From contig CAVUQO010000002.1 in NCBI GenBank assembly GCA_963743635.1, positions 224,001 to 288,000 on the forward strand: 64,000 bases of DNA, in the 5' to 3' direction. The DNA is from Candidatus Babeliales bacterium. GTDB taxonomy: Bacteria > Babelota > Babeliae > Babelales > Vermiphilaceae. The position numbers and the translations under genes are program-made. This document shows positions 21,729-56,618 of the stretch, piece after piece. Position 1 is the stretch's first letter. Each line of letters opens with the position of its first letter. The notes below the pieces were generated by a model. It did not search any database. It was not told where the DNA came from and saw only the letters and a list, made by a program, of their open reading frames with translations.

Positions 21729-21863
21729 GTCCGTCTACGCCTTCGGCTTCTTCGGACAGTCTTCGCTTTATCCTTTTTTGCTATTAATGTAACAATCATT
21801 AAAAAAGGTGGCGAAGCCAGACGAAGCTTGCCGAGCCTGAAGGCCCGGATAAGCGAAGACTGG
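21729..21863 (-). repeat. tRNA-3'-associated element, family B, copy 1
   Basis: CCAGTCTTCGCT...AGCTTCGTCTGG..GCCA...AGCGAAGACTGTCCGA...GCGTAGACGGAC; homologous to 56271-56418. Confidence 0.8.
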
Positions 21864-21951
21864 TGGAGAGAGAGGGATTCGAACCCTCGTGCCCGGTTTC
21901 CCAGACTCTTGCTTAGCAGGCAAGCGCTTTAGTCCACTCAGCCATCTCTCC
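21861..21951 (-). tRNA. tRNA-Ser(GCT)
   Basis: GGAGAGATGGCTGAGTGG..CT-GCT-AA, long variable arm, CCA. Confidence 0.95.
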
Positions 21952-22115
21952 GACAAAAATTTTATAGAATTAAGTGTTAGAACACTCGCTTTTAAAGGAT
22001 AAAGTATTTAGTAGTTTATGCAAGTGTAAGTATAGTATATCTTGTTGTAAAATGCATTGGGAGAGGGGTTATTGTAGTAACATCATGCTTCAATCGGTCG
22101 TACAAGGAATAATAA

Positions 22116-22400
22116 ATGCTTATTATAGAGGTAAAAGTGGTCCCTAGCTCAGGTAAGTCTGAATGCAAATTGGATAAGTCGGGGCGCTTGAAATGCTACC
22201 TCAAAAGCCCCCCAGAGCGCAATGAGGCCAATAATGAGTTAGTGAAATTGTTTGCCAAAGCCTTAAAGCTTACTCAAAACGAGGTCGAGATTGTCTCGGG
22301 AATGACGAGTCGAACCAAGAAATTGAAAATTTTAAAATCTATCACTGAAGATGAGTTATTAGCGCATTTAGGAATTCAACGTCAATTAACAGTGTGGTAA
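22116..22400 (+). CDS. DUF167/YggU family protein
   Basis: V.V.P, PP....AN.EL...AK, IVSG.TSR.K. Confidence 0.85.
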   Translation: MLIIEVKVVPSSGKSECKLDKSGRLKCYLKSPPERNEANNELVKLFAKALKLTQNEVEIVSGMTSRTKKLKILKSITEDELLAHLGIQRQLTVW

Positions 22401-22410
22401 ATGCGGGAAG

Positions 22411-23613
22411 GTGTATATGCCTTATTTTCGTTGGAAAGGAATTGATCTGCAGGGAACGGAGCGGGCGGGCCGTTCATGCGCAGCATCATTGGAAGATCTT
22501 GATACGCAGTTAATGCATCAAAATGTTGCATTGCTCAACAGCAAGCAGCTTTCGAGCCGCTTATTTGAGCGCCCAGTCAGCATGGACGTGAAGATTCAAT
22601 TCTTCAAAAGCTTGGCTACACTCCTTGAAGCCGGGGTTATGCTTCCTGAGGCGCTTGCCTTGGTGGCAGAGCAAGTCCGGCATATTGAATTTCATGAGGC
22701 TCTATACGCAATTAAACGTCAGGTAGAAACCGGCATCACTTTGAGTGATGCGATGGCAAAACATCGCCATATTTTCAATCCACTCATGATTGAAATGGTT
22801 GGAATTGGTTATGAGACCGGCGGTTTGGCAGTATCCTTGGAACGCCTGGTTTCCTATCTTGAAACAATGCAGGACTTTAGAAAAAAAATTCGCATGGCAT
22901 TGACCATGCCGCTCATCACATTTTTATTCTTCGTTGTTATTGCAATAGTACTCGTGATCTGCGTGGTGCCGCAATTTGAATCATTTTTCGCTTCACTCAA
23001 ACAGCCCCTGCCGACCAGTACACGCATTGTTTTACAGGTGAGTGCCTTTATACGTTCTTATGGCATACCTCTGTTGGGGCTTATTGGCATATCTATTGGT
23101 ACATGCGTTTGTTTGTATCGCGTCAATATGCAGGCACGCTATTGTTTTGATCGCCTGATGTTAGCAATACCATTTTTCGGACCATTAATGCTGACCCGGA
23201 TGTGTGCGCAGATCTCGCAAGCGCTGGCACTGCTTCTTGAGGGAGGCATAACGGTAGTGCATGCACTTTCGATCATAACCTCGCTCGTTGATAATATGGT
23301 GCTGCGCGATGTCTTGATTCGCGTGAAGCATGATGTTGAGGCAGGAATGCAGGTGAGCGACGCATTGACGCGCCAAGGAAATAGCTACCTTGGTTCGGAC
23401 GCCATTGCGTTAATACGGGTTGGTGAAACGTCTGCAACCTTGGGGCCAATGTTTGCTGCCGCCGCTCGACGTTACCAGGAATCAGTGACCTACACCTTGC
23501 AATGGCTTTTAAATCTCATGCAGCCATTGGTGGTTGTATTATTGGGCATTCTGATCACTGGCCTCATTATGGCAATTTATCTGCCAATAATGACGATTTC
23601 TTGGGGAATATAA
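22411..23613 (+). CDS. pilC: Type II secretion/type IV pilus platform protein (GspF/PilC)
   Basis: Two T2SSF domains (LATLLEAGV.L.EAL; G.ETG.L), three TM segments, AIYLPI. Confidence 0.9.
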   Translation: MYMPYFRWKGIDLQGTERAGRSCAASLEDLDTQLMHQNVALLNSKQLSSRLFERPVSMDVKIQFFKSLATLLEAGVMLPEALALVAEQVRHIEFHEALYAIKRQVETGITLSDAMAKHRHIFNPLMIEMVGIGYETGGLAVSLERLVSYLETMQDFRKKIRMALTMPLITFLFFVVIAIVLVICVVPQFESFFASLKQPLPTSTRIVLQVSAFIRSYGIPLLGLIGISIGTCVCLYRVNMQARYCFDRLMLAIPFFGPLMLTRMCAQISQALALLLEGGITVVHALSIITSLVDNMVLRDVLIRVKHDVEAGMQVSDALTRQGNSYLGSDAIALIRVGETSATLGPMFAAAARRYQESVTYTLQWLLNLMQPLVVVLLGILITGLIMAIYLPIMTISWGI

Positions 23614-23693
23614 TTATATTCATCGATTGACGTTTTAGGCAGTTTCAAGTACGCTATAATCCTATTCTTTAGAGATCTTTAGATCAATTTATA

Positions 23694-23780
23694 GCCGGGG
23701 TGGCGAAATTGGTAGACGCACGGGACTCAAAATCCCGCGGTAGTAATACTGTATCGGTTCGAGTCCGATCCCCGGCACCA
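23694..23780 (+). tRNA. tRNA-Leu(CAA)
   Basis: GCCGGGGTGGCGAAATTGGTAGACGC..CT-CAA-AA..CCA. Confidence 0.95.
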
Positions 23781-23838
23781 TTCATTTTTCAATCCTCGTG
23801 AGTTGAGGACTTTCTTCGCAGCCGATAAAAATGAATGG
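23778..23838 (+). repeat. tRNA-3'-associated element, family A, copy 3 (61 bp)
   Basis: CCATTCATTTTT...AAAAATGAATGG perfect 12-bp terminal inverted repeat. Confidence 0.9.
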
Positions 23839-24011
23839 CAGGCCACCTTCGCTAAAGCTTGCTGCTTGGCTTCAATTTTCCTAAAATCATTAACGGCTGG
23901 TGCCTGCTTTTTCAATAAATTCCCATCTTCATAAATTTTTCACTCACATCTGCAAAAAAGCAGTATAATAACAATGTTGTTTTTATAACTCTCTTTTCGT
24001 GTAGGTGCGGT

Positions 24012-24344
24012 ATGACAGAACAAAATTGTGTCTTTTGTGGCATTATCAATAAAAAAATTCCAGCAACGGTTATTGTTGAGAATGATCATGTGATTGTCAT
24101 TAATGATATTCATCCTAAAGCACCAGTACATTATCTGGTTATTCCCAAAAAACATGTTTCCGATTTTATGACGCTCACCGATGATACTGTCTTGCAAGAT
24201 CTTAAAAAAATGATTCAAAAGATTGGTCTTTCATTGCCGGGTCAATCATTTCGGTTGCTCATGAATAATGGTGCGGGCGCTGGTCAGAGTGTATTTCATC
24301 TTCATTTTCATATGCTTGCGGGCAAAAATATGGGTGGATTCTAA
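24012..24344 (+). CDS. hinT: HIT family nucleotide-binding protein
   Basis: CVFC, DIHP.AP.H.LVIPKKH, GQSVFHLHFH. Confidence 0.92.
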   Translation: MTEQNCVFCGIINKKIPATVIVENDHVIVINDIHPKAPVHYLVIPKKHVSDFMTLTDDTVLQDLKKMIQKIGLSLPGQSFRLLMNNGAGAGQSVFHLHFHMLAGKNMGGF

Positions 24345-24437
24345 TTATTTTTCCTTTTTGTGATTCTTGTTGTTTTTATGTACCATTTCTTTCCAGACTT
24401 TGTGAGACTATTGTTCACTGGTCACTGGGGAGATATA

Positions 24438-25193
24438 ATGAAGCTGTTATTGCGAACTACGGGATTGTTACTGTTAAGTGTATGTTACCTTGAAGGCAGA
24501 GATATGATGATAATAGCCCATCGTGGAGCTTCAGGACGAGAACCAGAAAATACTATGCGTGCATTTGAGAAGGCTGTTGAATATCGTGCTGATATGATTG
24601 AGTTTGACGTGCATGCATGTGGATCGGGTGAGATAGTTATTATGCATGATGACACTCTCGAACGAACAACCAATGGCTATGGAGAGGTTGGCAAAACGCC
24701 ACTTGCTGGATTACAGCGGCTTGATGCAGGTCTTGGTGAGCCGATTCCAACATTGCAAAAAGTGTTGGATACTTTTCGTGGCATAATAAAACTTGATATT
24801 GAACTCAAAGGAAAACATACCGGAGAGCCAGTTGCGGATCTGCTCCATGAATATATTTACCATTATAAGTGGCCCGTTACAGATATTCTCGTAACCTCTT
24901 TTCTTCATGAAGAATTATTGAAATTGCATGCGATTATGCCAGTAGTTCGCTTGGGTAAGATCTTTGATGACGGCGAATCGATTGAATATGATGCAGCGCT
25001 TTTTTGTGTTATTGTAGTGCCCTATTCGGCACTTACCTCAGAGTTGGTGCAACATGCGCATGCCCGTGGGGTACAAGTTCTGGTCTATACGCTCAATGAA
25101 CGTGAGCAGATATTGCATGCGGTGCAGTGCCAAGTAGATGGTATTATTTCCGATAATCCTGATATTGCTCGATCGATATGCGTACAGCGCTGA
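24438..25193 (+). CDS. Glycerophosphodiester phosphodiesterase (signal peptide)
   Basis: IAHRGASG..PENT..AF, EFDV, HD..LERTT, DGIISDNP. Confidence 0.92.
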   Translation: MKLLLRTTGLLLLSVCYLEGRDMMIIAHRGASGREPENTMRAFEKAVEYRADMIEFDVHACGSGEIVIMHDDTLERTTNGYGEVGKTPLAGLQRLDAGLGEPIPTLQKVLDTFRGIIKLDIELKGKHTGEPVADLLHEYIYHYKWPVTDILVTSFLHEELLKLHAIMPVVRLGKIFDDGESIEYDAALFCVIVVPYSALTSELVQHAHARGVQVLVYTLNEREQILHAVQCQVDGIISDNPDIARSICVQR

Positions 25194-25215
25194 CTGCGCA
25201 TAAAAGAGTAGTTTT

Positions 25216-26118
25216 TCATTCTTGAATTACAGGAATTTCTTTTGTGATTGTTTTCAGCTCATCTTGATAAAAAAGCGCGAGGCCGATAAATACGATAATG
25301 CTTGATGCATAAAAAGGCCATGTCGTAGTTTCATTGAGCCACAGCCATCCATAAAACGCTGCAAAAAAGGGAGAAATAAAGCCTGCAAAGGACACAAAAG
25401 TTGCAGTATATTTTTTTAATAAATACGCATACAAATTCTGACAAATCAGGCTGCCAACAATAGTTACCAACACAAGTAATCCAAGAAAACGGGGAGTATC
25501 AGTAACTGGATACCAACCTTCAAAGAATGGCGCCGTGAGCAGCGCGCAAAATCCACCTCCAAACATGGAGATGCCGTTAATTATAATGGGGGAGTAATGG
25601 GTTTCTCGCACCAATTTGCGAATGATAATCAATGTATAACTATGGGCAACCACAGAGGCAAGGACCGCAATTTCCGGCCATAGGGTACTCGCTGCTGTTT
25701 CTGCGGACGATGAACTAATAAGAATGGGAAAGAAGCCTATAAAACCTATGATTAAGCCTATCCATTGTTTGCGCGTCATCACTTCATTGAGCATGAAATA
25801 AGAAAAGAGTGCAGAAGCAAAAGGCGATAGATTAAACATGAACATTGTTTTCGCAGACGGCAGGAACTGAAAACCCCAAAAGCGAATGATATACGTGAAA
25901 TAAATGCCAAAAAAAGTTATTTGGACAAACATCCAGAGATGTTCTTTTTTGATATGAAAGCTTTCCTGAGTACGAAAATATTGGTAGACCATCATTACAG
26001 CACCGGCAAGGCCAAAGCGAGCAGCAATATAAAAGATAGGTTTACAACATCCAAAGATAAGTTTTGTGAGCGTAAGGGTCAGAGCCCAAAGCGCATAGTG
26101 GATTATAATTAACAGCAT
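25216..26118 (-). CDS. DMT/EamA family transporter
   Basis: About 10 TM, two EamA repeats. Confidence 0.88.
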   Translation of the reverse strand: MLLIIIHYALWALTLTLTKLIFGCCKPIFYIAARFGLAGAVMMVYQYFRTQESFHIKKEHLWMFVQITFFGIYFTYIIRFWGFQFLPSAKTMFMFNLSPFASALFSYFMLNEVMTRKQWIGLIIGFIGFFPILISSSSAETAASTLWPEIAVLASVVAHSYTLIIIRKLVRETHYSPIIINGISMFGGGFCALLTAPFFEGWYPVTDTPRFLGLLVLVTIVGSLICQNLYAYLLKKYTATFVSFAGFISPFFAAFYGWLWLNETTTWPFYASSIIVFIGLALFYQDELKTITKEIPVIQE

Positions 26119-26189
26119 AGTGGTCTATCGCTTTTAAAAAAAGGGTGGCGGGCAGTGATGCGTTATAGATATAACAACGAGGCATTCTT

Positions 26190-27158
26190 TTATTCAAGTA
26201 TTTCTGGAATTTCTTGTTTTATTGATTCCATTTCATCTTGATAGAAGAGTAAAAGTCCAATAAAAACAATGACGCTTGATACATAAAAATGCGGCGTTAT
26301 CTTTTCACTCAGCCATAACCAGCCATACAATGCTGCAAATAAGGGAGACATAAAGCCCGCAAAGGAAAGAAATGTGGCGGTGTACACTTTAAGCAGATAA
26401 GCATACAAATTGTGGCAAATAAGATTGCTAATTAAAATGACGCACGCCAACAATTTGGCAAATTCTAAAAAGTTGGTGACGGGACTGAGGCCTTCATAGT
26501 AAGGAGATGTGATGAGTGCGCATATGCCGCCAACAAACATAGTAAGTCCATTGATCATAGCAGGTGAATAGCTGTTATCACGTACGAGCTTACGAATAAC
26601 AATCCAATTATAACTATGACTTATTACCGAAGCGAGTACTGCAAGTTCTGGCCATGGAATACCGAATTGTGTTGGGGTAATGCCTTCAGTAATTTTTGGC
26701 GTGGTGGTCAACAGATTCCAGAATGCATTTAAAGCAGCAATTGGTGATAAAGGGCTTATTAAAATAGGAATGAATCCTATGACGCCAATACATAGACCAA
26801 GCCATTTTTTGCGCGACATTTCTTCATTTAAAAATATGTATGAAAAGAGAGCTGATAAAAAAGGTGCTAAGTTGAACATAAACATTGCTTTTGAAGCGGG
26901 CAAATATTTGAGTCCCCAAAATCGAATGATGTAGGTAAAATATATGCCAAAAAATACTACCTGCGCGTAAAGCCAGAAATGTTCTCGCTTGAAATGAAAA
27001 TCTTTACGCGCATAAATATATTGATAAGCCAAAAGCAGCATGCCTGCGAGAGACATGCGGGCACCGATATAAAAAATAGGTGCGGTGAAATCGAACATCT
27101 TTTTGCTGATTACAACGGAAAGCGCAAACAGTGCGTAAAGAATTATAATTAATATCAT
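26190..27158 (-). CDS. DMT/EamA family transporter (tandem paralog)
   Basis: Shares FFGIYFTYIIRFWG, MFMFNL.PF.SALFSY and FYQDE with its neighbour. Confidence 0.88.
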   Translation of the reverse strand: MILIIILYALFALSVVISKKMFDFTAPIFYIGARMSLAGMLLLAYQYIYARKDFHFKREHFWLYAQVVFFGIYFTYIIRFWGLKYLPASKAMFMFNLAPFLSALFSYIFLNEEMSRKKWLGLCIGVIGFIPILISPLSPIAALNAFWNLLTTTPKITEGITPTQFGIPWPELAVLASVISHSYNWIVIRKLVRDNSYSPAMINGLTMFVGGICALITSPYYEGLSPVTNFLEFAKLLACVILISNLICHNLYAYLLKVYTATFLSFAGFMSPLFAALYGWLWLSEKITPHFYVSSVIVFIGLLLFYQDEMESIKQEIPEILE

Positions 27159-27252
27159 AGGATTATCATTTAAATGAGTGGTACATATACTGAAAACTTA
27201 GTGTACCACATTATTGTGCTCAAAGTAGTATAATTATGTAGAGATCGGCTTT

Positions 27253-28320
27253 TTATGCTGTAGTAGTCTGGTTATTGGGTAGAATTTTTCCTGCAAAATT
27301 TCGTACCGCATTTCTATATTCATGTTTTTTAATCAAAAGATTATTGGCATGGCGTGAACCTTGAAAAATAACGAGCTCGTCCTGGCCGTTATTATGGTTT
27401 TCTTTTAGTGTCTGAATGTTCGTAAGCGGCGCATATTGATCACTCTCTTCATGTATATAGAGTATCGGTGTATCTTTCAGTATCTGAATTTTATCATCAA
27501 CACGAGAGACATGATCATGTTCCTGAATACCCCCCTTGACCAGTCCGATAGCAAGGCTCGTGAGTGGATAGCCAACCGAATTCCAAATGATTTTGTGTAA
27601 AAGGCGGTTTGATACTGCTGCGGTTCTATCGTTGCAGAAGATCCAACTGCGTAATATTTGAGAGAGCAACACATGCTTAAAGTGATAGTAACCAGCCGGC
27701 ACCACCTGCATACTTGAAGTGAATGCACTATCAAGAATGATTCCTTTAACGTTATACTTCTCTAATTCATTCTTTTTTTGGAGTTCACACAGTGCTCGCA
27801 GCGTATGAAAACCACCAGCACATAAGCCGAGCGTGATGAGCGGTTTCGTATTATCTTTGTTGTGCGCATAATCCATAGCGCCAATGACGTCTTTATAATG
27901 ATGCTTGCCATAGCGTCGCAGCTTAGCTACAAAGCTCAGGAGAGCGTTATTCTCACCTTGCCTGCGTGCATCAAAAAAAAGAATATTACTTTCATCGGGA
28001 AGGAGTTTTACGAGCGTTGACATTCCTTCCTTATTATTGGGAAAAAATCCGCCGGAGACAATGGTAGTATGAGTTGCGTTAGTTCTCGGGACCCAGATTC
28101 CATGAATATTAAAGTTATCCTGTGTGGTGAAGATAATTGATTCGGCGTTGTAATATTTTTTTAGATGCTCTCTGACACCGCTCTGATTTTTCAAAAGATT
28201 ATTGGTATCAAAAAGGGGATCATCATCAAGATTTGTGCTCGGGGCAGGTAATTCTGGCAATGAAAAGGCGGGGGCAGAACTTAAGAGTAATAATGGGATC
28301 AGGAGGGTGCGTATCATCAT
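27253..28320 (-). CDS. Secreted alpha/beta-hydrolase-fold protein
   Basis: FTTQD...IHG.W, FDARRQGE, GLCAGG at nucleophile elbow, LDSAF, D and H catalytic-position motifs. Confidence 0.65.
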   Translation of the reverse strand: MMIRTLLIPLLLLSSAPAFSLPELPAPSTNLDDDPLFDTNNLLKNQSGVREHLKKYYNAESIIFTTQDNFNIHGIWVPRTNATHTTIVSGGFFPNNKEGMSTLVKLLPDESNILFFDARRQGENNALLSFVAKLRRYGKHHYKDVIGAMDYAHNKDNTKPLITLGLCAGGFHTLRALCELQKKNELEKYNVKGIILDSAFTSSMQVVPAGYYHFKHVLLSQILRSWIFCNDRTAAVSNRLLHKIIWNSVGYPLTSLAIGLVKGGIQEHDHVSRVDDKIQILKDTPILYIHEESDQYAPLTNIQTLKENHNNGQDELVIFQGSRHANNLLIKKHEYRNAVRNFAGKILPNNQTTTA

Positions 28321-28404
28321 ATTAATTCCAAGGAATGGACTAGTTTTAGATATTGTCGGCGTCTAGTCTATGATATTGCATTATTAATGCAAAAAATTGT
28401 CACA

Positions 28405-28435
28405 AAAAAGGGGACCAATGTGGTCCCCTTTTTTT
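28405..28435. terminator. Intrinsic terminator
   Basis: AAAAAGGGGACCA-atg-TGGTCCCCTTTTTTT. Confidence 0.8.
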
Positions 28436-28451
28436 GTAATTCCTGTGATTT

Positions 28452-28976
28452 TTATTGGTAGAATCCTGACAAATTCTTACCTGCATCTTGTACTTTTACT
28501 TCTGGAAGTACTTTTGTCATTACGTTTCCATTATTATTCACCGCATACCATACCGTTAATCTGGTATTAGCTGAGTGAGGCTTGAAGATGTGATAATAAT
28601 AATTTCCTGGAGCAACTTGGATCTCTGATACCATTTGACCTGGTACATTTGCCGCTACCATGATTTTCTCTTTAGTGTCTAAGTTGGGCGCTGCCGCTTC
28701 TTGCTTTGAATTATTTGCAAGAGTGATGTTTGTTTGTTTAGTTGAGCTCATCATGCCACTCTTAAATGCCGGTATACTGATGAATACAGAGTTTTTGGTT
28801 TTTTCGTTATTCCAAAAATGGAATTTATTTTTATTCTTTTTATCAGCAATCCAAGTCTTAGCGTCGTTGACTTCTTGTGCTGATAACGCGGCAGGTTCAC
28901 TAGTTGGCTTAGCGGCATGCAGTGCGATTGTGCTCACGATGAGTGATACCGCTAATAGTACTTTATTGGTTTTCAT
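28452..28976 (-). CDS. Secreted hypothetical protein
   Basis: AAGGAG RBS; signal peptide ...STIALHA-AKP. Confidence 0.7.
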   Translation of the reverse strand: MKTNKVLLAVSLIVSTIALHAAKPTSEPAALSAQEVNDAKTWIADKKNKNKFHFWNNEKTKNSVFISIPAFKSGMMSSTKQTNITLANNSKQEAAAPNLDTKEKIMVAANVPGQMVSEIQVAPGNYYYHIFKPHSANTRLTVWYAVNNNGNVMTKVLPEVKVQDAGKNLSGFYQ

Positions 28977-29211
28977 ACTCTTCTCCTTTTGAAGTATGAT
29001 TAATAATATAACAATTTCCATCATAGCAAGGGCGTATGTTTGAAATAAAGAGTTTTGTAATTTAATGTTAATTCCAGGTAGGATTTATGGAATAAGGGGG
29101 CTAAAAGTGGCAAAAATGTATTATTTTTGGAGGTCGGTGGCGGCTTTTTTTTGATTAATGAGTATACTAGGGAGTCATGCTGATAAGGTAATTATAAATA
29201 AAGGGGTGTCT

Positions 29212-45647: not shown

Positions 45648-46257
45648 CGTAGCATTGCTTGCAACGTGCTTGATACGATTCTTCTGCGCCAATCATAATG
45701 ATCGGGTCGCTGTAGCGCGCTGGTTTTCCATTGATAATGCGCTGTGAGCGGTAGGCGTCCGTTCCGCAAATCGTACAAATTGCTTGAAGTTTGGTGACCG
45801 TATCGGCGAGTGCAAGGATTGCGCCCATTGGTCCAAACGGTTACGATAATCAAGATCAAGGCCGGCAATAATAACGCGTTTGCCTTGTGCAATGAGTGTG
45901 CGAATAACCGGAATGATCTCGTTAGAAAAGAATTGTACTTCATCGATTGCGATAACATCGTAGTGATTAGCAGCAACCAAATCAAGAAGGTCTTGCGGAG
46001 AGCTTATAGGTCGAGCGTCATAAGTCGTGCCGTTGTGCGAAGTTATGGTGTTACTCGCAGCGCGTGTATCGAGCATTGGTTTTACCACTAATAGATTGAT
46101 GTGCGATATCTGCACGAATAAGACGACGAATCAGTTCTTCCGATTTGCCGGCAAACATAGGCCCACAAATCACCTCGAGTTTTGCCTGAAATGAATGGAT
46201 GAGATGCGTGGCAACGAATGAGCTGCTTACGATAAGGCTCAATAATAATTTTTTCAT
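45634..46257 (-). CDS. tdk: Thymidine kinase with N-terminal signal peptide (frameshifted in assembly)
   Basis: [52 protein letters not shown]. Confidence 0.85.
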
Positions 46258-46264
46258 GGCATAT

Positions 46265-47615
46265 CTATTCGGTAAAGAGTGATAATAATTCATAAACGTT
46301 CGTAAAATATTTGATAGCACATGAAGTTTTATCAATTTTTTGGTTTTTGGCAACAAGAATTTGCTTGATGCCAAATTTTTCTGCTTCACAAATGCAATTG
46401 ATTTGATTAATAGGTTTAATTTGTCCGGTTAGACTAATTTCCCCTAAAGCGAGTGATTTTTCTGGCAATGGTTGTTGAAAATAACTGGAAAGCAGTGCAA
46501 GGGCAATGCCCAAATCGGTGGCACTTCCTTTAATTTTAAATCCGCCACTTACTTTAAAGAAAATATCTTGTGAGCTTAATTTAATATGTAGATATTTTTC
46601 TAAAATTGCCGCAATGAGCACAACCTGTTTATGATCAAGGCCGGAAACAACGCGTTGCGGAATGCCAAGTTTTGATTCGATGGTGAGTGCTTGCAATTCA
46701 ATAAGTAGCGGGCGCGATCCTTCAATCACGCTGACTAAGACCGATCCCGGATGCATGCGAAAGTTCACTTATAAAGTTGTTCGTTAATATTGGGTACTTC
46801 TTCAAGCCCTTCTTCTCCCATTTCAAAAAAACCAAGTTCATTAATCGTACCAAAACGATTTTTTACCGAGCGTAAAACACGCGTTTGCCAACGATCTTCG
46901 CCTTGCAGATAAAAGACGGCATCGACCATATGTTCTAATGTTTTAGGGCCCGCAATAGTGCCTTCTTTGGTAATATGTCCGCTCACAATTACGGTGATAT
47001 TGTGTTCTTTTGCCAAACGCATGAGATGAAAGCTGATTCACGCAGTTGGCCAACACTTCCCGGGAAATGTAGTTGCTGAGCTCGCGGTGTAGCAATTTTG
47101 AATCGAATCGATGATCACAATATCCGGCTTTTTGCTTGCGCAGGTTGCAATAATTGTCTTCTAAATCTGCTTGATCAGAAAAAAGAAGATTGTCATTGAT
47201 ACATTCCAAGCGCTCAGCACGTTGTTTTACTTGTTGCAAAGATTCTTCGGTGGAAAAATAAAAAACACGATATGTTTTTCGCAAGGCGATTGCAAATTTG
47301 CAGTAGCAAAGTTGATTTACCAATGCCAGGGTCACCGGTTAAAATGAGTAGTGAGCTGGGCATAATGCCGCCGCCCACCACGCGATCCCATTCATCAATG
47401 CCGGAAAACATACGCGTCTTTTTGTGCGTGGGAGCATCATCGAGATTGCATCATAGTTACGCGTGCAGCCGTTATTTTGGCACCCGAGGGAATTGGGAGC
47501 AGTGGTTTACTTCAGTGAGTGAATTCCATTCATTGCATTCAGGGCAACAGCCCATCCATTTGAGCGTTTGATAGTTGCAGTTGGAACAGGTGAAAGTGAT
47601 TTTTTGTTTACTCAT
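46265..47615 (-). CDS. radA: DNA repair protein RadA/Sms (frameshifted in assembly)
   Basis: N-terminal Zn finger, GDPGIGKSTLL, GHITKEG.IAGPK.LEHMVD, KNRFG, Lon-like C-terminus. Confidence 0.92.
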
Positions 47616-48192
47616 GGATTTGAAACTCGGGGTGTTTATCAATACTATAACAATTTCTACAGCGTGCTTGGTATGCTTCTTGCGTGCCGATCATAATAAT
47701 AGGATCTTGATATTGGGCAGGTTTGCCATTCACTAACCGTTGAGTATAGTGCGCATCTTGGCCACATGCAGGCAGATTGCACGTAATTTGGTAATTTCAT
47801 CGGCAATAGCAAGCAAGATGGGCATGGGACCAAAAGGTTCGCCACGAAAATTAAGATCAAGCCCAGCCACAATAATGCGTTTTCCTTTATTGATGAGTTC
47901 GCAGATCGTATGAATGATTGTGCGCGGAAAAAATTGGATTTCATCAATGCCCATTACTTCAATATGATGCCATGCAAGTTCAAAAATGATCTGTTCATTA
48001 TCTACCGCATGAGCATCAATTTTACTGCCATCGTGGGAATAAACGTATTCGACTAGCGGTTCGACTATCGAACTGTGTTTAAAGGCAACAACTTGTTTTT
48101 GCAATTTTTGCACGCCGCAATCTGCGAATGAGTTCTTCTGATTTGCCAGAAAACATGGGGCCGCAAATAACCTCTAAACGTCCATGATCCAT
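47612..48192 (-). CDS. tdk: Thymidine kinase, cytoplasmic (frameshifted in assembly)
   Basis: [45 protein letters not shown]. Confidence 0.88.
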
Positions 48193-48289
48193 TGAATATA
48201 CTCCTGGTATGACCTTACTATGAGATGACGATATAATCTAGTATACTGTGGGGGGTTAAAAAGTGAAAATGATCATTGGAGATTGCACT

Positions 48290-48757
<468 letters not shown>

Positions 48758-48914
48758 CGGGGAGGCAGTAAAAATCCTATAATGGGCAAAAGGGCGTGAT
48801 ATTGGGATGATTTAGAGGCCGCAGAGAAGAATGGTCTGCTCAAGAGGTCTATTTGGAAGGGAAATTAGTTAAAACAGCCGTTTTGGCTGTTTTAAGGGCC
48901 CCTTTAGTTTCTAC

Positions 48915-48943
48915 TTGAAATAATATTAAAGTTCTGTTATAAT
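48915..48943 (+). promoter_or_regulatory. Sigma70 promoter of the RBR ligase gene
   Basis: TTGAAA-N17-TATAAT with extended -10 TG. Confidence 0.65.
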
Positions 48944-49005
48944 GGTATCTAGGAAGAGAAAAAAGTGATTTTTACTCTTATTATTAACCAAAAAAGGGAG
49001 ATATC

Positions 49006-50301
49006 ATGAAATTTATAACACAATTAGTATTAGTATCAATGGTCCTTACTGGCCAATCGATATCCGCTATGAGCGCAAAAGCACTGGCGGCTTATAGAGA
49101 GCGTGAAATGGCAGGAAGAACAGAGCAAGCCTCTGCAGCTTCAAGCAGCTCATCATCGTCCTCATCAGCGAGCAGTCAATCATCAGAAGGGGAAGCGCGT
49201 AGACCTAAAGGAAAACGAGCTTTAACGCGTCAAGAATTGACACAGATGGAACAACAAGAAAAAGCAGCCATAGAGGCACTAAAATTGGCAGAAAAAGCAG
49301 CGTATGAAGCAGAGGATAAAGCAAGAGAAGAAGCAAAAAAACTCGAAGCATTAGCTGCAGAATTGGCACAAGAAGAGTGGAATTTGGAAAGGCAAGCTGC
49401 AGAGAAACTTGCAAAGCAAGATGAAGAATTAGCGAAACAATTGCAAAAACAAGCAAGTATTGAAGCAAAAGAAGAAGAATTGAATACTCTTAAACAGCAG
49501 CAGCAGATTGCAGAAAAAGATGCGCTGTTAGCGAAGCAATTGGCAGAGCAGGTAGAGGCAGAAGCGCAAGAGCTTAAGCAGCGAATTGCCGAAGATGAAG
49601 AACTAGCGAGAAAATTAGCTGAAGAAAGTGGCCCTTCTGGTCAGTCGAGTGCGAGTAGTTCTTCACAAGCGGCCGAGCTCCAGCAGTGCGGCATTTGTAT
49701 GGAAGACGTTGAGCCGCAGAATATGGTAAATCTTGCATGTCAGCATGCCTATTGCCGTGGATGTTTGACTCAGCTTGTTGAAACCGGTCTTAAGGAAAAA
49801 AATATTGAAGGTATTAAGTGCCCAACGTCTGAATGTAATGCTCCAATGACCCGGGCAGATATTTTTGATATTACGCAAAATCCTGCAAAAGTTGAGGAAT
49901 ATAATGCTATCGCTACCGAGACAGCCCTACCTAAGCTGCAAGGTATCAGGCAGTGTCCTACGGCGAACTGTCCATACCAATTTTTAAATGAAGCAGATGA
50001 GACTCAGGAAACGCGGTGTCCTATGTGCACAAAGCGCTATTGCGCAAACTGCTTAAAAGAGCACAGTGCTCGCATGTCGTGCGAACAAGCGGCAGCTGAC
50101 GCGGCAATGACCTCAGATGATCGGGAGCGGGCAACGGAAGAATGGAAAAAAACACACACAAAGCCATGTCCGAAATGTAACGTTTCAATTGAGAAAGATG
50201 CAGGATGTAATCATATGAGATGCATAACTCCTAGCTGCAGCCACCAGTTTTGTTGGGTGTGTAAACAGCCATGGAACGCAGACCATTACCGCTGTCAGTG
50301 A
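49006..50301 (+). CDS. Secreted RBR (RING1-IBR-RING2) E3 ubiquitin ligase-like effector
   Basis: Signal peptide; CGIC..ACQHAYCRGC..CPTSEC; CPTANC..CPMC..YCANC..H..C; CPKC..IEKDAGCNHMRC..C.HQFCWVC. Confidence 0.92.
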   Translation: MKFITQLVLVSMVLTGQSISAMSAKALAAYREREMAGRTEQASAASSSSSSSSSASSQSSEGEARRPKGKRALTRQELTQMEQQEKAAIEALKLAEKAAYEAEDKAREEAKKLEALAAELAQEEWNLERQAAEKLAKQDEELAKQLQKQASIEAKEEELNTLKQQQQIAEKDALLAKQLAEQVEAEAQELKQRIAEDEELARKLAEESGPSGQSSASSSSQAAELQQCGICMEDVEPQNMVNLACQHAYCRGCLTQLVETGLKEKNIEGIKCPTSECNAPMTRADIFDITQNPAKVEEYNAIATETALPKLQGIRQCPTANCPYQFLNEADETQETRCPMCTKRYCANCLKEHSARMSCEQAAADAAMTSDDRERATEEWKKTHTKPCPKCNVSIEKDAGCNHMRCITPSCSHQFCWVCKQPWNADHYRCQ

Positions 50302-50482
50302 CCGTTATAATTATAGGTATAAATCTGTGCCCCCTTGTTTCTGACTAGAAAATAAGGGGGCTACTATTTCTAGATGGGCAGCAAAAATCCTAAAAAAGTG
50401 TATACTGATAAGGATTTTGATAAATACCTATGCCTGGCCTGATACCTAAAAAGCCATGGCTTTCAGTGATGTGGAATGATTT

Positions 50483-51228
50483 ATGAAAAAAATAATACAA
50501 AAACCAGCATTGGTGACCTTAAATACTTATCTTGCTCATGCGGGCGTTTGTTCTCGTCGAAAAGCGGCTGAATTGGTTGAATCGGGCGTCGTGCGCGTCA
50601 ACCAGCAGGTTGTGGCTGATCCCGGCTATCGGGTAAAACCAGATGATATCGTGGAAGTCTCGGGAAGAAACATTACTCCTGAAGATCACGTCTATGTTTT
50701 GCTTAATAAGCCAAAAGATTATGTAACGACCGTTTCAGATGAGCGTGGCCGTAAAACAGTCATGGACTTAGTTCGCGGTGCTGGGCACGTTCGGCTGTAT
50801 CCCATTGGGCGCCTTGATCGGATTACAACCGGATTATTGCTCATGACCAATGATGGTGCATTTGCAGAAAAATTGGCCCATCCTCGCTATGAAGTAGAAA
50901 AAGTATACACGGTGACGCTTGATAAGAGCGTGAGCTCTGGTGATATACAGACGATTATGCGTGGAATTCAGCTTGAAGATGGATTGATTAAGGTGGATGA
51001 TATAGCGTATACGGGGACCACCAAAAGAGAGGTTACCTTAGCGCTTCACAGCGGAAAATATCGGGTTGTGCGTAGAATATTTGAACAACTTGGGTATGAT
51101 GTGCGTAAGCTTGACCGTATAGAATATGCAGGGTTAACCAAAAAAGAGTACCGGTTGGTATGTGGCGTTACCTGACGGATGGCGAAGTTGCCGCACTAAA
51201 AAGAATGAAAAATGAGGAAAAGGAATAA
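50483..51228 (+). CDS. rluB: 23S rRNA pseudouridine synthase (RluB/RsuA family; frameshift near the end)
   Basis: S4 domain GVCSRRKA, GRLD.ITTGLLLMTNDG. Confidence 0.9.
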
Positions 51229-51230
51229 TC

Positions 51231-52015
51231 ATGGATTATGGAACGATTGTTCGTATTGGTATTTTGGTCGCAATGGGCGTAGTTGGCATTTCTGCCATGA
51301 AACGCGTCTTAACCAGAGCTCTCGAGCGATGGTACAATGATCCAGTTCGCATACCGATTATGGTACGATTGTTGACCTATTTAGCGGTATTTATTGTCGG
51401 TGCCTCAATTATGCAAGAATTGGGCATTAATATTACTGCATTGTTGGGTGCTGCAGGGATCTTGGGTGTGGCCATTGGTTTTGCCGCACAAGCGAGCGTC
51501 AGTAATATCATCAGTGGTATATTTATCCTGATCGAACGTCCGTTCTCAATAGATGATGAAATTCAAATTGATGAGTTCAGTGGAAAAGTGGTAGACATCA
51601 ATCTATTTTCTATCGGATTGCTGACTCCCGATCATCGTTCTATTCGTATTCCGCACGAAAAATTATTGAAAAACGTTATCATCAATAAAACTCATCGCGC
51701 AAAGCGCCGTTACGAAGTCACTATTGCATTAGCATCGTATGAAGATCTTGATCGTGCACGTGCAGTGTTTGTGGATGCTATGCGTAATGAATCGTATTGC
51801 CTAATCTCACCTGAGCCAATTGTGTGGGTGGATACAATCAATGGCGATGTAACGCAATTGATCGTTGGTGTTTGGGTTGATAGCAGCAAATTGGTTGAAG
51901 CAAAACACCGTCTTGTTGGCGCGTTATATCCCGCGTGTAAAAAAGAAAATATACATCTCATCAACCATCTACGATGTCGATACAAGTCACGCAGAAGTAA
52001 TTTCAACAATGATGT
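51231..52015 (+). CDS. mscS: Small-conductance mechanosensitive channel (end approximate)
   Basis: LGAAGILGVAIGFAAQ..VSNIISG..ILIERPF. Confidence 0.88.
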
Positions 52016-52100
52016 GAGTTTTTGTAGGCAACGTCTGGATCTTATGATACGCTCCTTGCATAAATTATGTAAAAATTATCTATGCGTAGCAGGTATTCGT

Positions 52101-53433
52101 ATGTCAAATGCTCATCTCGTCATTGAACAATCGTGGGGTCTTTCAGGAGAATTGGAATTGGTTGGCGCAAAAAATGCGGTGCTGGTCATTATGGCAGCAT
52201 TAATTTTGACGCGCGGCAAGTCAGTTCTAAAAAATGTTCCGGCATCATCTGATGTCGATCAAATGATTTTAGTGCTCGAAGAATTGGGCGCTCAGGTTAC
52301 GTTCTGTCGCAAAGAACATCGTCTTGAAGTTGATACAACGTTCCATCTCAAAATACAGCGTCAGTCCTGAAATCATGCGCAAGATGCGGGCATCCATTTT
52401 AGTAATGGGGCCGTTACTTGCACGCTTTGGTAAAGCAGATATTGCATTGCCGGGCGGTTGCGTCATTGGCGCGCGTCCCGTTGATTATCACATCAAAAAT
52501 TTTGAACAAATGGGCGTCATGGTTGAAATGCATGGTGACTACTTAAAAGCAGTAGCGCCAGTTTTGCAGGCAACCACGTTAGTGCTCGATTATCCAAGCG
52601 TTGGTGCAACTGAAAATATTATGATGGCTGCAGCGCTGACGCCGGGCGTAACGCGCATTATTAATGCCGCATTAGAGCCGGAAGTGTTGGATTGCATTGA
52701 AGTGCTGCGTAAAATGGGTGCAGATATTGCGATTTTACCGCCAGCAACGCTTGAAATTAGAGGCGTGAGCTCGCTAAAACCCATTGAGCATGCGATTGTC
52801 TATGATCGTTTAGAAGCGGGCGCATTATTGCTAGCTGCGGCGATTACGGGCGGAAATATTTCATTGCCACAAGCGCCAGCATACACGATGGATATTGTGA
52901 TTAAGAAATTACGAGATATGGGGCATATTCTGAACGTGGGTGCAGATGGGGTCGGAATTACCTTACACGCAACGCAAACGCCGCGCGCCGTATCATTCAA
53001 GACTGGTCCATATCCGAGCTTTCCGACCGATTTACAAGCGCCTATGATGGCAGCGCAATGTATTGCCAATGGCACGAGTATGGTCGAAGAGACGGTTTTT
53101 GAAAATCGTTTGGTGCATGTGCGTGAATTGCAAAAAATGGGTGCGCAGATTACCGTTGAGCACAATAAAGCAACGGTAATGGGTGTTGAGGAATTGTATG
53201 GAACGCAGATCATTGCAACCGATATTCGCTCTTCATGCGCATTAGTTCTTGCGGGATTAGTGGCAAAAGGAGCAACGCATATGACCGGCATTCATCATTG
53301 GCAACGAGGTTATGAAATGCTTGAGCGTAAACTTGCTCATTTGGGTGCGCGTATTGCGCTTAAAGAATTCGAGCCAGCTCGCGTTGAGTTTGACGAAACT
53401 CTTGATAAGAAATGGCACGAAGTACAATCGTAG
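52101..53433 (+). CDS. murA: UDP-N-acetylglucosamine 1-carboxyvinyltransferase (frameshift near 52350)
   Basis: GAKNA, MRAS, LPGGCVIGARP, SVGATEN, FPTDLQ, FENR. Confidence 0.95.
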
Positions 53434-53564
53434 TTCGATGCGCTTCGCTACTCACCATGAACGGATTATTCTGAGTTTGACGAAGGAGCCATCACGACTG
53501 CGGCTATGTCAGACGTAGCTCCAGAAAGAAAGGAGCGAAGAGTGAATAAACGAAGTCGGAAGGG
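53434..53564. repeat. REP-like element between convergent murA and atpG
   Basis: TTCGATGCGCTTCGCTACT matches the reverse complement of 682-700 with one mismatch; ends GGG-TTA at the atpG stop. Confidence 0.65.
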
Positions 53565-54413
53565 TTAGAACCCACCCGTGAGTTCGGTAAGTTCTTTGGT
53601 AATTTTTGCCTGACGCACTTTATTGTAGTGCAATTTATTCACTTCAAGTAAATTCTCAGCGCTGCGTGTTGAATTATCCATGGATAAAAAGCGCGCAGCT
53701 TGTTCTGCAAGTAATGAATGAAAGAGGAGCATATGTACCGTTGCTTGTAAGCATTGGCGCGTAATGTCATCAAGTAGTTCGCTCGGAGATTCTTCCCATC
53801 GATATTCAATTCTTTCCAGCGTGCTGTGATCTCGGGTGCCCGGATCGAATGGAATGAGGCGCGTTATGTGCGGTTGTTGTACGAAAAAACTTCTAAATTT
53901 ATTACTGACGACGGTCACGTGCGTATAGGGTACTGGCATAGAGATCAGGTCTTGCACGATCGCTTCTGCAGTCAGTGCAATGGTGCTCATGGTCAGCGGA
54001 GAATAGATTTTAATGATTTTGCCAAAAGGCATGTCCTGTGTGTAATCAACCGTTTTTTTACCGACTATCATGACATCAGGCGTTTTGGTATAAGTACGAA
54101 GAGTGGCGCGCAGGAATTGAAAGAGCATAGTATTAAAGCTACCGCAAAGACCTTTTTCTGATCCCATGATGATGATAAGAGGTCGAGACTCCAGGTCTGC
54201 TTTTGGATTGAAATAGGGATGGTGCCAAACAGGAACTTCTTTTTTAATCATATGAAAGAGGGTATTGAGCGTTGTGGTGTACTGAGAAAGTGCAACTTCT
54301 TTATTTTTAAGGCGTGCATGGGTCGAGATAGAGATAAGTCGCATCGCGTGAGTAATTTTCTTAATTGTCTCGATCGCTTTTATTCGCTGTTTGAGCTGAG
54401 TCAATTGAGCCAT
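53565..54413 (-). CDS. atpG: ATP synthase F1 gamma subunit
   Basis: KKITHAMRLIS, KGLCGSFN, EQAARF.SMD, YNKVRQAKITKELTE. Confidence 0.95.
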   Translation of the reverse strand: MAQLTQLKQRIKAIETIKKITHAMRLISISTHARLKNKEVALSQYTTTLNTLFHMIKKEVPVWHHPYFNPKADLESRPLIIIMGSEKGLCGSFNTMLFQFLRATLRTYTKTPDVMIVGKKTVDYTQDMPFGKIIKIYSPLTMSTIALTAEAIVQDLISMPVPYTHVTVVSNKFRSFFVQQPHITRLIPFDPGTRDHSTLERIEYRWEESPSELLDDITRQCLQATVHMLLFHSLLAEQAARFLSMDNSTRSAENLLEVNKLHYNKVRQAKITKELTELTGGF

Positions 54414-54504
54414 ATATGCGCCTTATATAAAATTATGGTAGGATACGTACCTTAATTACATATGGTATCGCTAACAAACTGTTTTTTCAATGGTGAGGGT
54501 ATGT

Positions 54505-55086
54505 ATGATTTTAATAATCGATGGTTATAATATTTTAAAGCGCCAGCATGTGGTCCGTTTTGTGGATGAGGCGGTACGCAAGCGATTCATACAAGGAGTT
54601 GCTGCATACGCGCGTCATAGTGGTAATAAAGTTCTCGTGGTGTTTGATGGTGGCCCGCAGGACGATGCTTATGAAGAATATGGGCGTGGCGTGCAGGTTG
54701 TCTATTCGGGTACGCGAGAAACGGCTGACGATTATATTAAACGCTATGTGAAAAGGCATAGTAATAAAGATCTTATGCTCGTGACCTCTGATCGCGAACT
54801 GAATAGTATTGCAGATCGTTATGCAGTTCCTTCGCTTGATGCGCATGAATTTGTGCGGGTTTTGATGTATAGTGAGCATGAGCGTTCGACGGGAAGTTCT
54901 TCAAAACATGCGCCAATTATAAAAATGAGCACTGAAGAAATACCAGAATTGGATGAATTGATGGAGCAAGCGAGTAAAGCCGTACCACAAAAAACTGATG
55001 ATCTGATGTTGAAAAATCGAAAAAGCGCCGCGCAAAAAATGTCAAAAAAAGAGCGCGAGTTGCTTAAAAAAGTAAAAAAATTATAG
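54505..55086 (+). CDS. NYN/YacP-like RNase domain protein
   Basis: IIDGYN, VVFDG, ETADDYI, VTSDREL. Confidence 0.88.
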   Translation: MILIIDGYNILKRQHVVRFVDEAVRKRFIQGVAAYARHSGNKVLVVFDGGPQDDAYEEYGRGVQVVYSGTRETADDYIKRYVKRHSNKDLMLVTSDRELNSIADRYAVPSLDAHEFVRVLMYSEHERSTGSSSKHAPIIKMSTEEIPELDELMEQASKAVPQKTDDLMLKNRKSAAQKMSKKERELLKKVKKL

Positions 55087-55092
55087 GGGCTT

Positions 55093-55524
55093 ATGGCAAA
55101 CCACCAATTAATATATACACTTGATCAGCTTGATAATGCGGTTAAACTGGTCAAAGAGCGGATGAATTCATGTCAGGTTGTGACTTTTACGGGGAATTTG
55201 GGTGCGGGAAAAACGACTCTCATCCGAGCCCTCTTACGAGATTTAGGGGTTTCGCAACCCATTACAAGTCCAACCTTTACGTATATGAATCGGTATAAGA
55301 CGGCGGATGGCAAGATTATCTACCATTTTGATTTATACCGTTTAAACAGCCTGGATGAGTTTATAGAGCAGGGATTTCATGAATACCTGTACCAACCTGA
55401 AAGTTGGTGCCTGGTTGAGTGGCCGGCGATTATTATGCCTCTTTTGACCCATGATGTATGCCATATAACCCTCGATTATGAGAACGACGCTCGCTGTATG
55501 CGCTGGAAAATGAATAAGGAATAA
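55093..55524 (+). CDS. tsaE: tRNA t6A biosynthesis ATPase TsaE
   Basis: GNLGAGKTT, TSPTF, YHFDLYRL, VEW. Confidence 0.95.
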   Translation: MANHQLIYTLDQLDNAVKLVKERMNSCQVVTFTGNLGAGKTTLIRALLRDLGVSQPITSPTFTYMNRYKTADGKIIYHFDLYRLNSLDEFIEQGFHEYLYQPESWCLVEWPAIIMPLLTHDVCHITLDYENDARCMRWKMNKE

Positions 55525-55528
55525 CAAT

Positions 55529-55738
55529 ATGCAAGATGATGGAAGTCCGTTGCTCCAAAGGCCAGATTATTTGGTTTGCACCTGTATGGGGGTCATGTAC
55601 TCGGATATCTGTGATGCCATAAAAGGTGGCGTACAGACATTTGATGAACTTTATGATACGTTAGGTGTGGGGACTGGGTGTTCAAGTTGTGTGAGCGAAG
55701 TGCATGAAATATTGGCAGAACAACTTAAAAAAAAATAA
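55529..55738 (+). CDS. BFD-like (2Fe-2S) ferredoxin
   Basis: VCTCMGV...GVGTGCSSC. Confidence 0.85.
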   Translation: MQDDGSPLLQRPDYLVCTCMGVMYSDICDAIKGGVQTFDELYDTLGVGTGCSSCVSEVHEILAEQLKKK

Positions 55739-55898
55739 TTTAAAAAACGCGATTATACACACTAGATCGACCTTTTGGTGTGTTTTGGGGTGAAAAAGAG
55801 GTGATAAACTCTTATTTTTTTGTAAAATTAAGTTGAAATCTCCTGAGAAAAACACTATCATATTCACGGTAATCGTGATTATAACAATATTTGAAATA

Positions 55899-55983
55899 GG
55901 CGAGATTCCCGAGCGGTCAAAGGGGACGGACTGTAAATCCGTTGGTTCTGCCTTCGCAGGTTCGAATCCTGCTCTCGCCACCA
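55899..55983 (+). tRNA. tRNA-Tyr(GTA)
   Basis: CT-GTA-AA, variable arm, CCA. Confidence 0.95.
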
Positions 55984-55989
55984 TAGGTT

Positions 55990-56065
55990 GCGGGAATAGC
56001 TCAATTGGTAGAGTGGCAGCCTTCCAAGCTGTAGGTTGCGGGTTCGAGTCCCGTTTCCCGCTCCA
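55990..56065 (+). tRNA. tRNA-Gly(TCC)
   Basis: GCGGGAATAGCTCAAT..CT-TCC-AA..CCA. Confidence 0.95.
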
Positions 56066-56123
56066 TTCATTTTTCAATCCTCGTTAGCTGAGAGCTTTCT
56101 TTGCAGCGGATAAAAATGAATGG
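56063..56123 (+). repeat. tRNA-3'-associated element, family A, copy 4 (61 bp)
   Basis: CCATTCATTTTT...AAAAATGAATGG. Confidence 0.9.
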
Positions 56124-56197
56124 CTGGCCATTTTCGTCAAGGCTTACGAATGGTAAGTATGGGCGTAGATTGGTAGGAATCAAAAAAAATATACATT

Positions 56198-56273
56198 GCT
56201 GGCGTAGCTCAGTTGGTAGAGCAACTGATTTGTAATCAGTAGGTCGCGGGTTCAAATCCTGCCGCCAGCTCCA
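56198..56273 (+). tRNA. tRNA-Thr(TGT)
   Basis: TT-TGT-AA, CCA. Confidence 0.95.
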
Positions 56274-56418
56274 GTCTTCGCTCCTCATGGAGCTTCGTCT
56301 GGAAAGCCAGGCATAGGAACTGGTTTTATTGAAATAGTAAAAGGGGCAGAGCGTAGACTGTCCGATCGAAGCAAAACGCTTCGTGGAGTAAATCTTCGGA
56401 GTAATAGCGAAGACGGAC
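56271..56418 (+). repeat. tRNA-3'-associated element, family B, copy 2
   Basis: CCAGTCTTCGCT..AGCTTCGTCTGG..GCCA..AGCGTAGACTGTCCGA..GCGAAGACGGAC. Confidence 0.8.
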
Positions 56419-56542
56419 TCATCCAGTTATACAGGTATGTGTTAAATCCGGGGCTTTATTGTAGTTTCAAGCAGAAAATTAAGTTGTTTTTTTCCTTTTT
56501 TTTAATTAATCTATAATAGATCACTGTAAGATACGTTGCAGT

Positions 56543-56618
56543 GCCCACGTAGCTCAGTTGGTAGAGCACTTCCTTGGTAAGGGAGAGGTCACCGGTTCAA
56601 GTCCGGTCGCGGGCTCCA
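56543..56618 (+). tRNA. tRNA-Thr(GGT)
   Basis: TT-GGT-AA, CCA. Confidence 0.93.

Follow-up and report, generated by a model that had tools for sequence, protein, structure and literature searches.

The window considered here, the whole stretch of DNA that was analysed, comprises 64,000 nucleotides from a Babeliales (Dependentiae) bacterium (assembly GCA_963743635.1, contig CAVUQO010000002.1; G000:C2:224001-288000), and coordinates below are window positions. Two of its tRNA genes, tRNA-Ser(GCT) and tRNA-Thr(TGT), are each followed by a trailer of shared layout, referred to as family B. Arm a of the trailer consists of the CCA plus 9 nt, and arm b, with TGG at its end, is the proximal and imperfect partner of a; with the loop between them they form the first hairpin, hp1. 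A mini-hairpin that closes on a second CCA follows, then a spacer, then arm a', the distal and perfect partner of a, and finally hp2, a hairpin whose 3x3 internal loop is made of purines. A first-pass annotation made from the letters alone had described this arrangement behind both tRNA genes, and each part could indeed be located:

21861..21951, minus strand: tRNA-Ser(GCT), the target gene (ARAGORN and Rfam); its encoded CCA (21863-21861) supplies the first three bases of the leader pairing
21852..21863, minus strand: Ser arm a (CCA plus 9 nt), the switching strand
21829..21851, minus strand: Ser hp1 loop, with a nested hairpin also found in loops of further module copies elsewhere in the genome
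21809..21828, minus strand: Ser arm b (21828-21817) and the mini-hairpin closing on the second CCA (GCCA at 21812-21809)
21768..21808, minus strand: Ser spacer, 41 nt, AT-rich; the Ser(GGA), Leu(TAA) and Pro(TGG) copies have homologous spacers
21757..21767, minus strand: Ser arm a', perfect partner of a, pairing with C75-A76 of the tRNA end
21730..21756, minus strand: Ser hp2, with the purine 3x3 internal loop (GWA/GWA), a putative nuclease recognition hairpin; no GIY-YIG gene downstream
56198..56273, plus strand: tRNA-Thr(TGT), the target gene (ARAGORN and Rfam); encoded CCA at 56271-56273
56271..56282, plus strand: Thr arm a, including the CCA
56291..56309, plus strand: Thr arm b (56291-56302) and the TGG..CCA mini-hairpin (GCCA at 56306-56309)
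56310..56349, plus strand: Thr spacer, 40 nt, AT-rich
56350..56360, plus strand: Thr arm a'
56361..56417, plus strand: Thr hp2, whose loop holds a nested hairpin of the dispersed repeat family; no GIY-YIG gene downstream

Both trailers fold better than shuffled sequence (z -4.5 for Ser and -3.6 for Thr, with 0/200 shuffles as good for each). The Thr trailer was read in contigs of two DNA runs with identical trailer positions, one piece spanning 56241-56572 with 0 other letters (X2) and the other 56230-56600 with 1 other letter (X1), and is therefore no assembly artefact. Contigs of one RNA run (X20) leave the trailer uncovered, which carries no weight for or against its expression. Downstream of the Thr hp2 the ancestral Thr-Thr spacer resumes. 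Rfam covariance models, at both gathering and E-value level, gave no match on the trailers; the further homologs and the covariation that had been proposed as checks alongside this search were found in relatives.

The full trailer of ~135-150 nt, hereafter the leader, is present behind 5 of the 34 tRNA genes of the host genome, namely Ser(GCT), Thr(TGT), Pro(TGG), Leu(TAA) and Ser(GGA). The spacer had initially been considered unrelated between copies. However, it is 39-41 nt long in all five and can be aligned, both between Ser-GCT and Pro (score 15, 0/1000 shuffles as high) and between Thr and Pro (1/1000 shuffles as high), the alignment of Ser-GCT with Thr alone being marginal (41/1000 shuffles as good). 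The hairpin module also occurs away from tRNAs, with 32 strict matches in the genome versus 2, 2 and 0 in three shuffles. Its copies are often nested in one another, in both orientations, and nested hairpins of this kind lie within the window trailers too, in the Ser hp1 loop and the Thr hp2 loop. A solo module of the hp2 type, with no tRNA adjoining, lies at 4969-4994 (plus strand).

The copy behind tRNA-Pro(TGG), outside the window, is complete. Its leader is followed ~45 nt later by an intact open reading frame (ORF) of 82 aa (G000:C2:545730-545975, minus strand) that encodes a Slx1-like GIY-YIG protein (Pfam GIY-YIG, E 9.5e-16). The catalytic residues Y17, R27 and E63 are invariant across 38 homologs, and the AlphaFold2 model (predicted local distance difference test, pLDDT, 95) is closest to At-HIGLE and Slx1, as is the sequence. 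Fold and catalytic residues both fit membership among the Slx1-like proteins, and NCBIfam assigns no family to four GIY-YIG proteins. The first-pass annotation had raised both a small GIY-YIG gene and an HUH-type transposase as genes that homologs might carry. The former is borne out behind tRNA-Pro of the host genome and in tRNA-adjacent relatives, whereas Y1_Tnp (PF01797), the RAYT/Y1 transposase, was not found in the host genome (85% complete).

Among relatives, the leader is anchored at the CCA end. A search for the exact a-b-GCCA (hp1) pattern hit 43 of 251 phylum genomes, whereas a reversed control pattern hit 0. The exact pattern is also present at 58 stretches of the GTDB genome collection; where the title of such a stretch is specific to a group, it is always TM6, Dependentiae or Babeliales, the remaining titles being 'bacterium' or 'uncultured Pseudomonadota'. 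Of the 69 exact phylum matches, 67 were examined, with two own-genome copies left out. The match starts at the CCA of an ARAGORN tRNA in 58 cases, covering many isotypes, at a tmRNA-like end in 4 and elsewhere in 5. In total, 62 of the 67 begin at a tRNA or tmRNA CCA end. A GIY-YIG homolog lies within 700 nt of 14 of these matches and within 350 nt of 12.

When junctions were measured from the T-loop, with a pattern that itself required CCA, 152/158 fell at CCA 74-76 and 6/158 at a CCA formed by positions 71-73, with no other offset; the latter six are in tRNA genes without an encoded CCA. With the requirement removed, CCA was still present in 144/147 leaders. One exception, L238, stands behind a tRNA-Thr without encoded CCA and ~140 nt upstream of its gene, and in it the CCA, the TGG and the second CCA are jointly replaced by TCC, GGA and TCC. 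This joint replacement is a hint that base pairing sets the target triplet, which might then be open to reprogramming. Rfam, searched in 20 loci for other RNA genes at the non-tRNA CCA sites, found nothing at them. Of four non-tRNA regions examined, three are without tRNA and the fourth, L306, has an intact tRNA-Glu and a recombinase-like ORF ~4 kb upstream. There (L306:1536-6354), leader and GIY-YIG gene follow a tRNA-Glu-like 3' fragment ~4 kb from the intact tRNA-Glu, and the interval between this fragment and the intact gene contains recombinase-like and toxin-antitoxin-like ORFs (named by eye). The L306 leader was probably displaced by an integrated island.

The nuclease homologs lead back to the same sites. 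They occur in 168 of the 251 phylum genomes, and 22 of the best 30 phylum homolog loci have an ARAGORN tRNA or tmRNA end at most 350 nt upstream. Among 84 metagenome and viral loci, 64 have enough upstream DNA, and 51 of these 64 have a tRNA end or T-arm within 330 nt; the tRNA-adjacent loci mostly share the a-b-a'-hp2 plan in other sequence variants. A homolog is present in 41/43 genomes with the exact hp1 pattern versus 127/208 without it, by a hand count in which kin are not independent. A profile retrieves 4,365 clusters at 50% identity with E<=1e-10, a set that may include neighbouring GIY-YIG families. IMG/VR holds 4 homolog loci, and annotated plasmids and phages contain no homolog at 1e-5.

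In 97 genes with both flanks available, a'-hp2 is upstream in 47 and downstream in 1, a locus that also has a'-hp2 upstream, and b is upstream in 71 and downstream in 6. The composition of 95 non-metagenome leaders, which is biased by how the loci were fetched, is b only in 39, b and a' without the gene in 20, all three in 19, b and gene in 8, a' and gene in 2, and neither in 7. This left-anchored series fits copying from the CCA with a variable stop, or later deletion.

Orthologous sites were compared, by eye, for each of the two tRNAs at the 30 loci that matched best, out of 67 and 74 matching genomes. Among these loci, tRNA-Thr(TGT) has a family-B start in 0/29 family relatives, and the Thr-Thr spacer measures 76-144 nt in 23/28 measurable relatives versus 269 here. 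For tRNA-Ser(GCT), the 29 relatives in the best-matching set comprise 11 empty sites (6-37 nt), 12 leaders with five different triplets and 6 other or decayed hairpins. On a tree of 70 tRNA-adjacent proteins, no fewer than 37 changes of target tRNA are needed (20 states; shuffled mean 48.7), and 27 of the leader triplet (12 states; shuffled mean 44.2). Pro, tmRNA and Ala targets occur together in starred clades, as do tmRNA, Ala, Asp and Arg targets, and the leaders in these clades are all of the GTC type.

The proposal that the 5' arm has two alternative partners gains support from covariation, order-permuted homologs and folding energies. Parsing of 153 tRNA-anchored leaders, with patterns that leave the variable triplet free, recovered b in 140 and a' in 63. 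Outside the dominant GTC type, 162/165 a:b cells are paired (shuffle mean 96.6, max 116), as are 84/87 a:a' cells (shuffle mean 50.5, max 63); these counts are not probabilities because the leader rows are related. The covarying non-GTC leaders represent at least seven triplet types. In 10 metagenome loci (L177, L178, L184, L185, L201, L202, L216, L218, L219 and L221) the order is a-a'-hp2-b instead of a-b-a'-hp2, with a' 7-20 nt from a, and both pairings are kept. Several of these leaders fall in protein clades of their own. Because both pairings covary and survive this block swap, the switch is real. Both alternatives appear to be selected, and the order-permuted leaders are the stronger evidence compared with the cell counts. 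In constrained folds of four own copies, the two states lie 0.2-6.7 kcal/mol apart on the sense strand. On the same tRNA-sense strand, G-T outnumbers A-C by 12 to 2 in a:b, by 12 to 5 in a:a' (9 to 1 without the outermost pair) and by 6 to 0 in hp2. In 26/126 parsed leaders the triplet behind the first CCA recurs behind the second (shuffle mean 8.4, max 15), perhaps as the trace of a former duplication or because b has a third pairing.

Based on this evidence, family B is best explained as the leader of a mobile tRNA-end GIY-YIG cassette, a reading to which we assign a probability of roughly 0.8. The cassette has the plan tRNA-CCA, a - b - (TGG..CCA) - spacer - a' - hp2, then a ~80-aa Slx1-like GIY-YIG gene, and it sits right behind the tRNA or tmRNA CCA end while leaving the tRNA gene intact. 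The window copies are gene-less copies, non-autonomous or decayed, of its non-coding front end. The reading draws, by comparison of sequences, on the layout, CCA anchoring, gene linkage and one-sidedness of the copies. It draws likewise on presence and absence at orthologous sites, on changes of target tRNA within protein clades and on the two covarying pairings. The leader is probably a cis-acting single-stranded DNA (ssDNA) substrate of the tRNA-end-targeting GIY-YIG cassette, with the mutually exclusive pairings probably steering the position of the cut.

The exact mechanistic route can be sketched more tentatively, and the true one could well differ. Slx1 nucleases cut 5'-flap-type branches. 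The leader on the tRNA-sense strand would act as ssDNA, and the nuclease would bind hp2, as SsnA, a nuclease considered below, binds its hairpin. Once a has paired with a', their helix would stack on hp2 and the tRNA would branch off at C74/C75 as a 5' flap of the Slx1 type, so that cutting the flap would give the precise left end. With a:b formed instead, or through the freed TGG, pairing with a CCA end might shield the resident site or capture a new one. Host repair synthesis primed at the nicked CCA would then copy the cassette, and variable stops would generate leader-only and hp1-only copies.

Several observations weigh against the cassette reading. The protein tree has 80 columns and 17/67 inner branches starred, and it cannot give direction; moreover, the target label is also clustered on it (37 changes versus a shuffled mean of 48.7), so vertical descent at the site contributes. 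Covariation was counted across sequences that are related, and the search patterns presupposed the TWC loops. The G-T excess could also arise if C-to-T mutations are favoured on the non-template strand of a heavily transcribed gene, and it does not distinguish RNA from DNA. The gene starts within 350 nt in 12/67 family-B matches, so most copies are gene-less, and deletion explains this as well as truncated copying. Neither a target-site duplication nor a conserved right end was found in the five own copies, the phylum loci or the flanks of the 97 genes. Finally, we infer cutting and copying by the cassette from sequence.

The rival that survives best, although improbable, is a route through RNA. 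Here the leader would be a structured RNA, the tRNA 3' CCA would pair with TGG and serve as primer for a reverse transcriptase, of the host or borrowed, and the GIY-YIG protein would nick the target as in Penelope-like elements. The TGG, complementary to CCA, looks like the beginning of a primer-binding site of a retroelement, the wobble pairs favour the transcribed strand, and the left junction is precise with a variable right end. However, no reverse transcriptase lies within the cassette in the loci read, and the six junctions at CCA 71-73, in genes without encoded CCA, are not expected of a mature-tRNA primer, though a later 3-nt deletion is possible. The scattering and nesting of the hairpin module in both orientations is like that of a DNA repeat. 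In addition, SsnA, the closest characterised analogue, does not bind RNA according to the text of PMC11893778.

It is less probable still, and by some way, that the leader is a host-beneficial RNA switch in tRNA precursors, serving 3' processing, termination or stability, with the nuclease gene as a passenger. Both folds bury the CCA end at similar energies, many copies have a T-run after the mini-hairpin, and gene-less copies persist with intact pairing. Against this, even within one family the leader is present at some orthologous tRNA genes and absent from others, its triplet tracks the nuclease tree and not the tRNA, and there is no Rfam match. The first-pass annotation had offered a structured RNA or ssDNA element as one reading. 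The structure, the tRNA targeting and the GIY-YIG link of such an element hold up, but the analysis does not support an independent structured RNA that works for the host, since no Rfam family matches and the leader is missing at most orthologous sites. Its other reading, the left and right ends of a tRNA-targeting element that lost its cargo, taken here as an IS-like element (insertion sequence, IS) with the cargo lost from the spacer, can be dismissed as highly improbable: a and a' are perfect inverted repeats, but the gene lies 3' of the whole bipartite leader and the halves are therefore not ends around a lost cargo, a'-hp2 is downstream of the gene in 1/97 loci, the spacer is a leader part of conserved length (36-42 nt in 44/81 parsed leaders) and a' is only 7-20 nt from a in permuted leaders, so that gene position and spacer length largely refute it.

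For the mobile cassette, the closest characterised system is Ssn/SRM (PMC11893778), with which it shares a single-domain GIY-YIG gene of ~80-100 aa beside a cognate oriented hairpin that is dispersed in the genome. According to the text of that paper, the SsnA (cd10448) nuclease binds its own hairpin and cuts upstream of it, and the authors propose an IS-like origin for Ssn/SRM (Chenal et al. 2025, PMC11893778). Family B has the small single-domain GIY-YIG beside a cognate hairpin repeat that marks Ssn. In contrast, its protein has 31% identity over 67 aa to one NTS-flanked GIY-YIG and falls on a separate tree branch, where branches are long. Pairwise E values of 5e-7 and 1e-5 to two NTS-flanked GIY-YIG proteins (of three taken as SsnA-clade stand-ins) are weaker than the 1e-10 cut-off given in PMC11893778. 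The published degenerate SRM motif matches neither window trailer, 1/153 leaders and 2 places in the genome. Family-B hairpins lie on one side of the gene only, whereas Ssn has the order NTS-gene-NTS as that paper describes it. Family B also has two alternative pairings, unlike Ssn/SRM as presented there, and strict tRNA/tmRNA CCA targeting, whereas the main text of PMC11893778 has 0 occurrences of tRNA. The SRM mismatch, the 31% identity, the separate branch and the lack of tRNA in the main text therefore place family B outside Ssn, although it may work like Ssn/SRM by analogy.

Prokaryotic stand-alone Slx1-like GIY-YIG proteins have the same minimal domain without auxiliary domains, and Slx1 and At-HIGLE are the best sequence and fold matches. 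They are mostly vertically inherited according to passages of a Dunin-Horkawicz-type survey, which have no tRNA-end leader or mobility, whereas family B has a tRNA-end leader (PMC1564403). The REP/BIME/REPIN sequences with RAYT and IS200/IS605, also discussed in PMC11893778, share with family B an inverted doublet of imperfect hairpins and dispersed, nested non-autonomous copies, and short base pairing at the hairpin foot could select the target in both. Family B has the dispersed imperfect palindromes, in doublets and mosaics, that are typical of REP/RAYT. However, those elements use an HUH tyrosine transposase, while family B has a hydrolytic GIY-YIG and no defined right end. In a classical IS or miniature inverted-repeat transposable element (MITE), inverted ends flank the gene with a target-site duplication, whereas the family-B arms are both upstream and no consistent duplication follows hp2 in the five own copies. 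The free-standing GIY-YIG homing genes of phage T4 (seg) are likewise selfish nuclease genes beside conserved RNA genes. In contrast to them, the 82-aa protein has no DNA-binding domain, and the cassette changes from one tRNA gene to another, unrelated one, a pattern that homing through flanking homology leaves unexplained.

Family B is a Babeliales variant of an apparently undescribed tRNA-end GIY-YIG element, no description of which was found in the mostly open-access literature searched. A wider proposal, which seems rather unlikely in full, is that of a widespread class of minimal mobile element whose 80-residue Slx1-like nuclease takes its aim from a nucleic-acid switch with two states. 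One fold would present CCA as a cleavable branch beside the recognition hairpin, and the other would capture CCA via TGG. This would permit copy-in behind any tRNA or tmRNA without transposase, recombinase or reverse transcriptase. If true, the element would be among the smallest autonomous mobile elements known (~400 bp) and would account for a very frequent, unannotated feature of many bacteria, namely tRNA genes trailed by hairpins and by tiny 'GIY-YIG family' genes. It would also represent a new route of safe-harbour targeting by structure plus three bases, and would provide a candidate compact ssDNA nuclease whose cut is possibly placed by base pairing.

Long leader spacers, such as those of L123, L174 and L207, cluster at 36-42 nt, and some contain a perfect IHF-like motif; an IHF site in the spacer is the mark of BIME-1/RIB (REP-IHF-REP). 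The motif is perfect in 4/58 long spacers (shuffle mean 0.4, max 3), a weak enrichment, and present with at most 1 mismatch in 14/58 (shuffle mean 6.8, max 14); the window copies are degenerate. Two HU/IHF-family proteins fall below all IHF cut-offs.

A second trailer family, family A, has the form CCA-TTCATTTTT...AAAAATGAA-TGG followed by a mini-hairpin, and thus the same CCA...TGG..CCA plan as family B. It occurs in the window at 21545-21462 (minus strand), 20581-20498 (minus strand), 23781-23850 (plus strand) and 56066-56135 (plus strand), its hosts being tRNA-Arg(ACG), Ser(TGA), Leu(CAA) and Gly(TCC). In the genome as a whole, family A follows about 12 tRNA or tmRNA genes; the copy at tRNA-Glu lies ahead of another small GIY-YIG gene (L005). 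A perfect 22-bp inverted repeat lies at 13958-14016, and its arm resembles hairpins flanking three other small GIY-YIG genes (L002-L004) of a separate clade, whose proteins we take to be UPF0213-like. This repeat and L002-L004 suggest a second nuclease-hairpin pair. Elsewhere on the contig, from G000:C2:571544 onward, tRNA-Arg(CCT) is followed by at least 3 tandem units of ~77 nt that repeat the tRNA 3' end, each with a hairpin.

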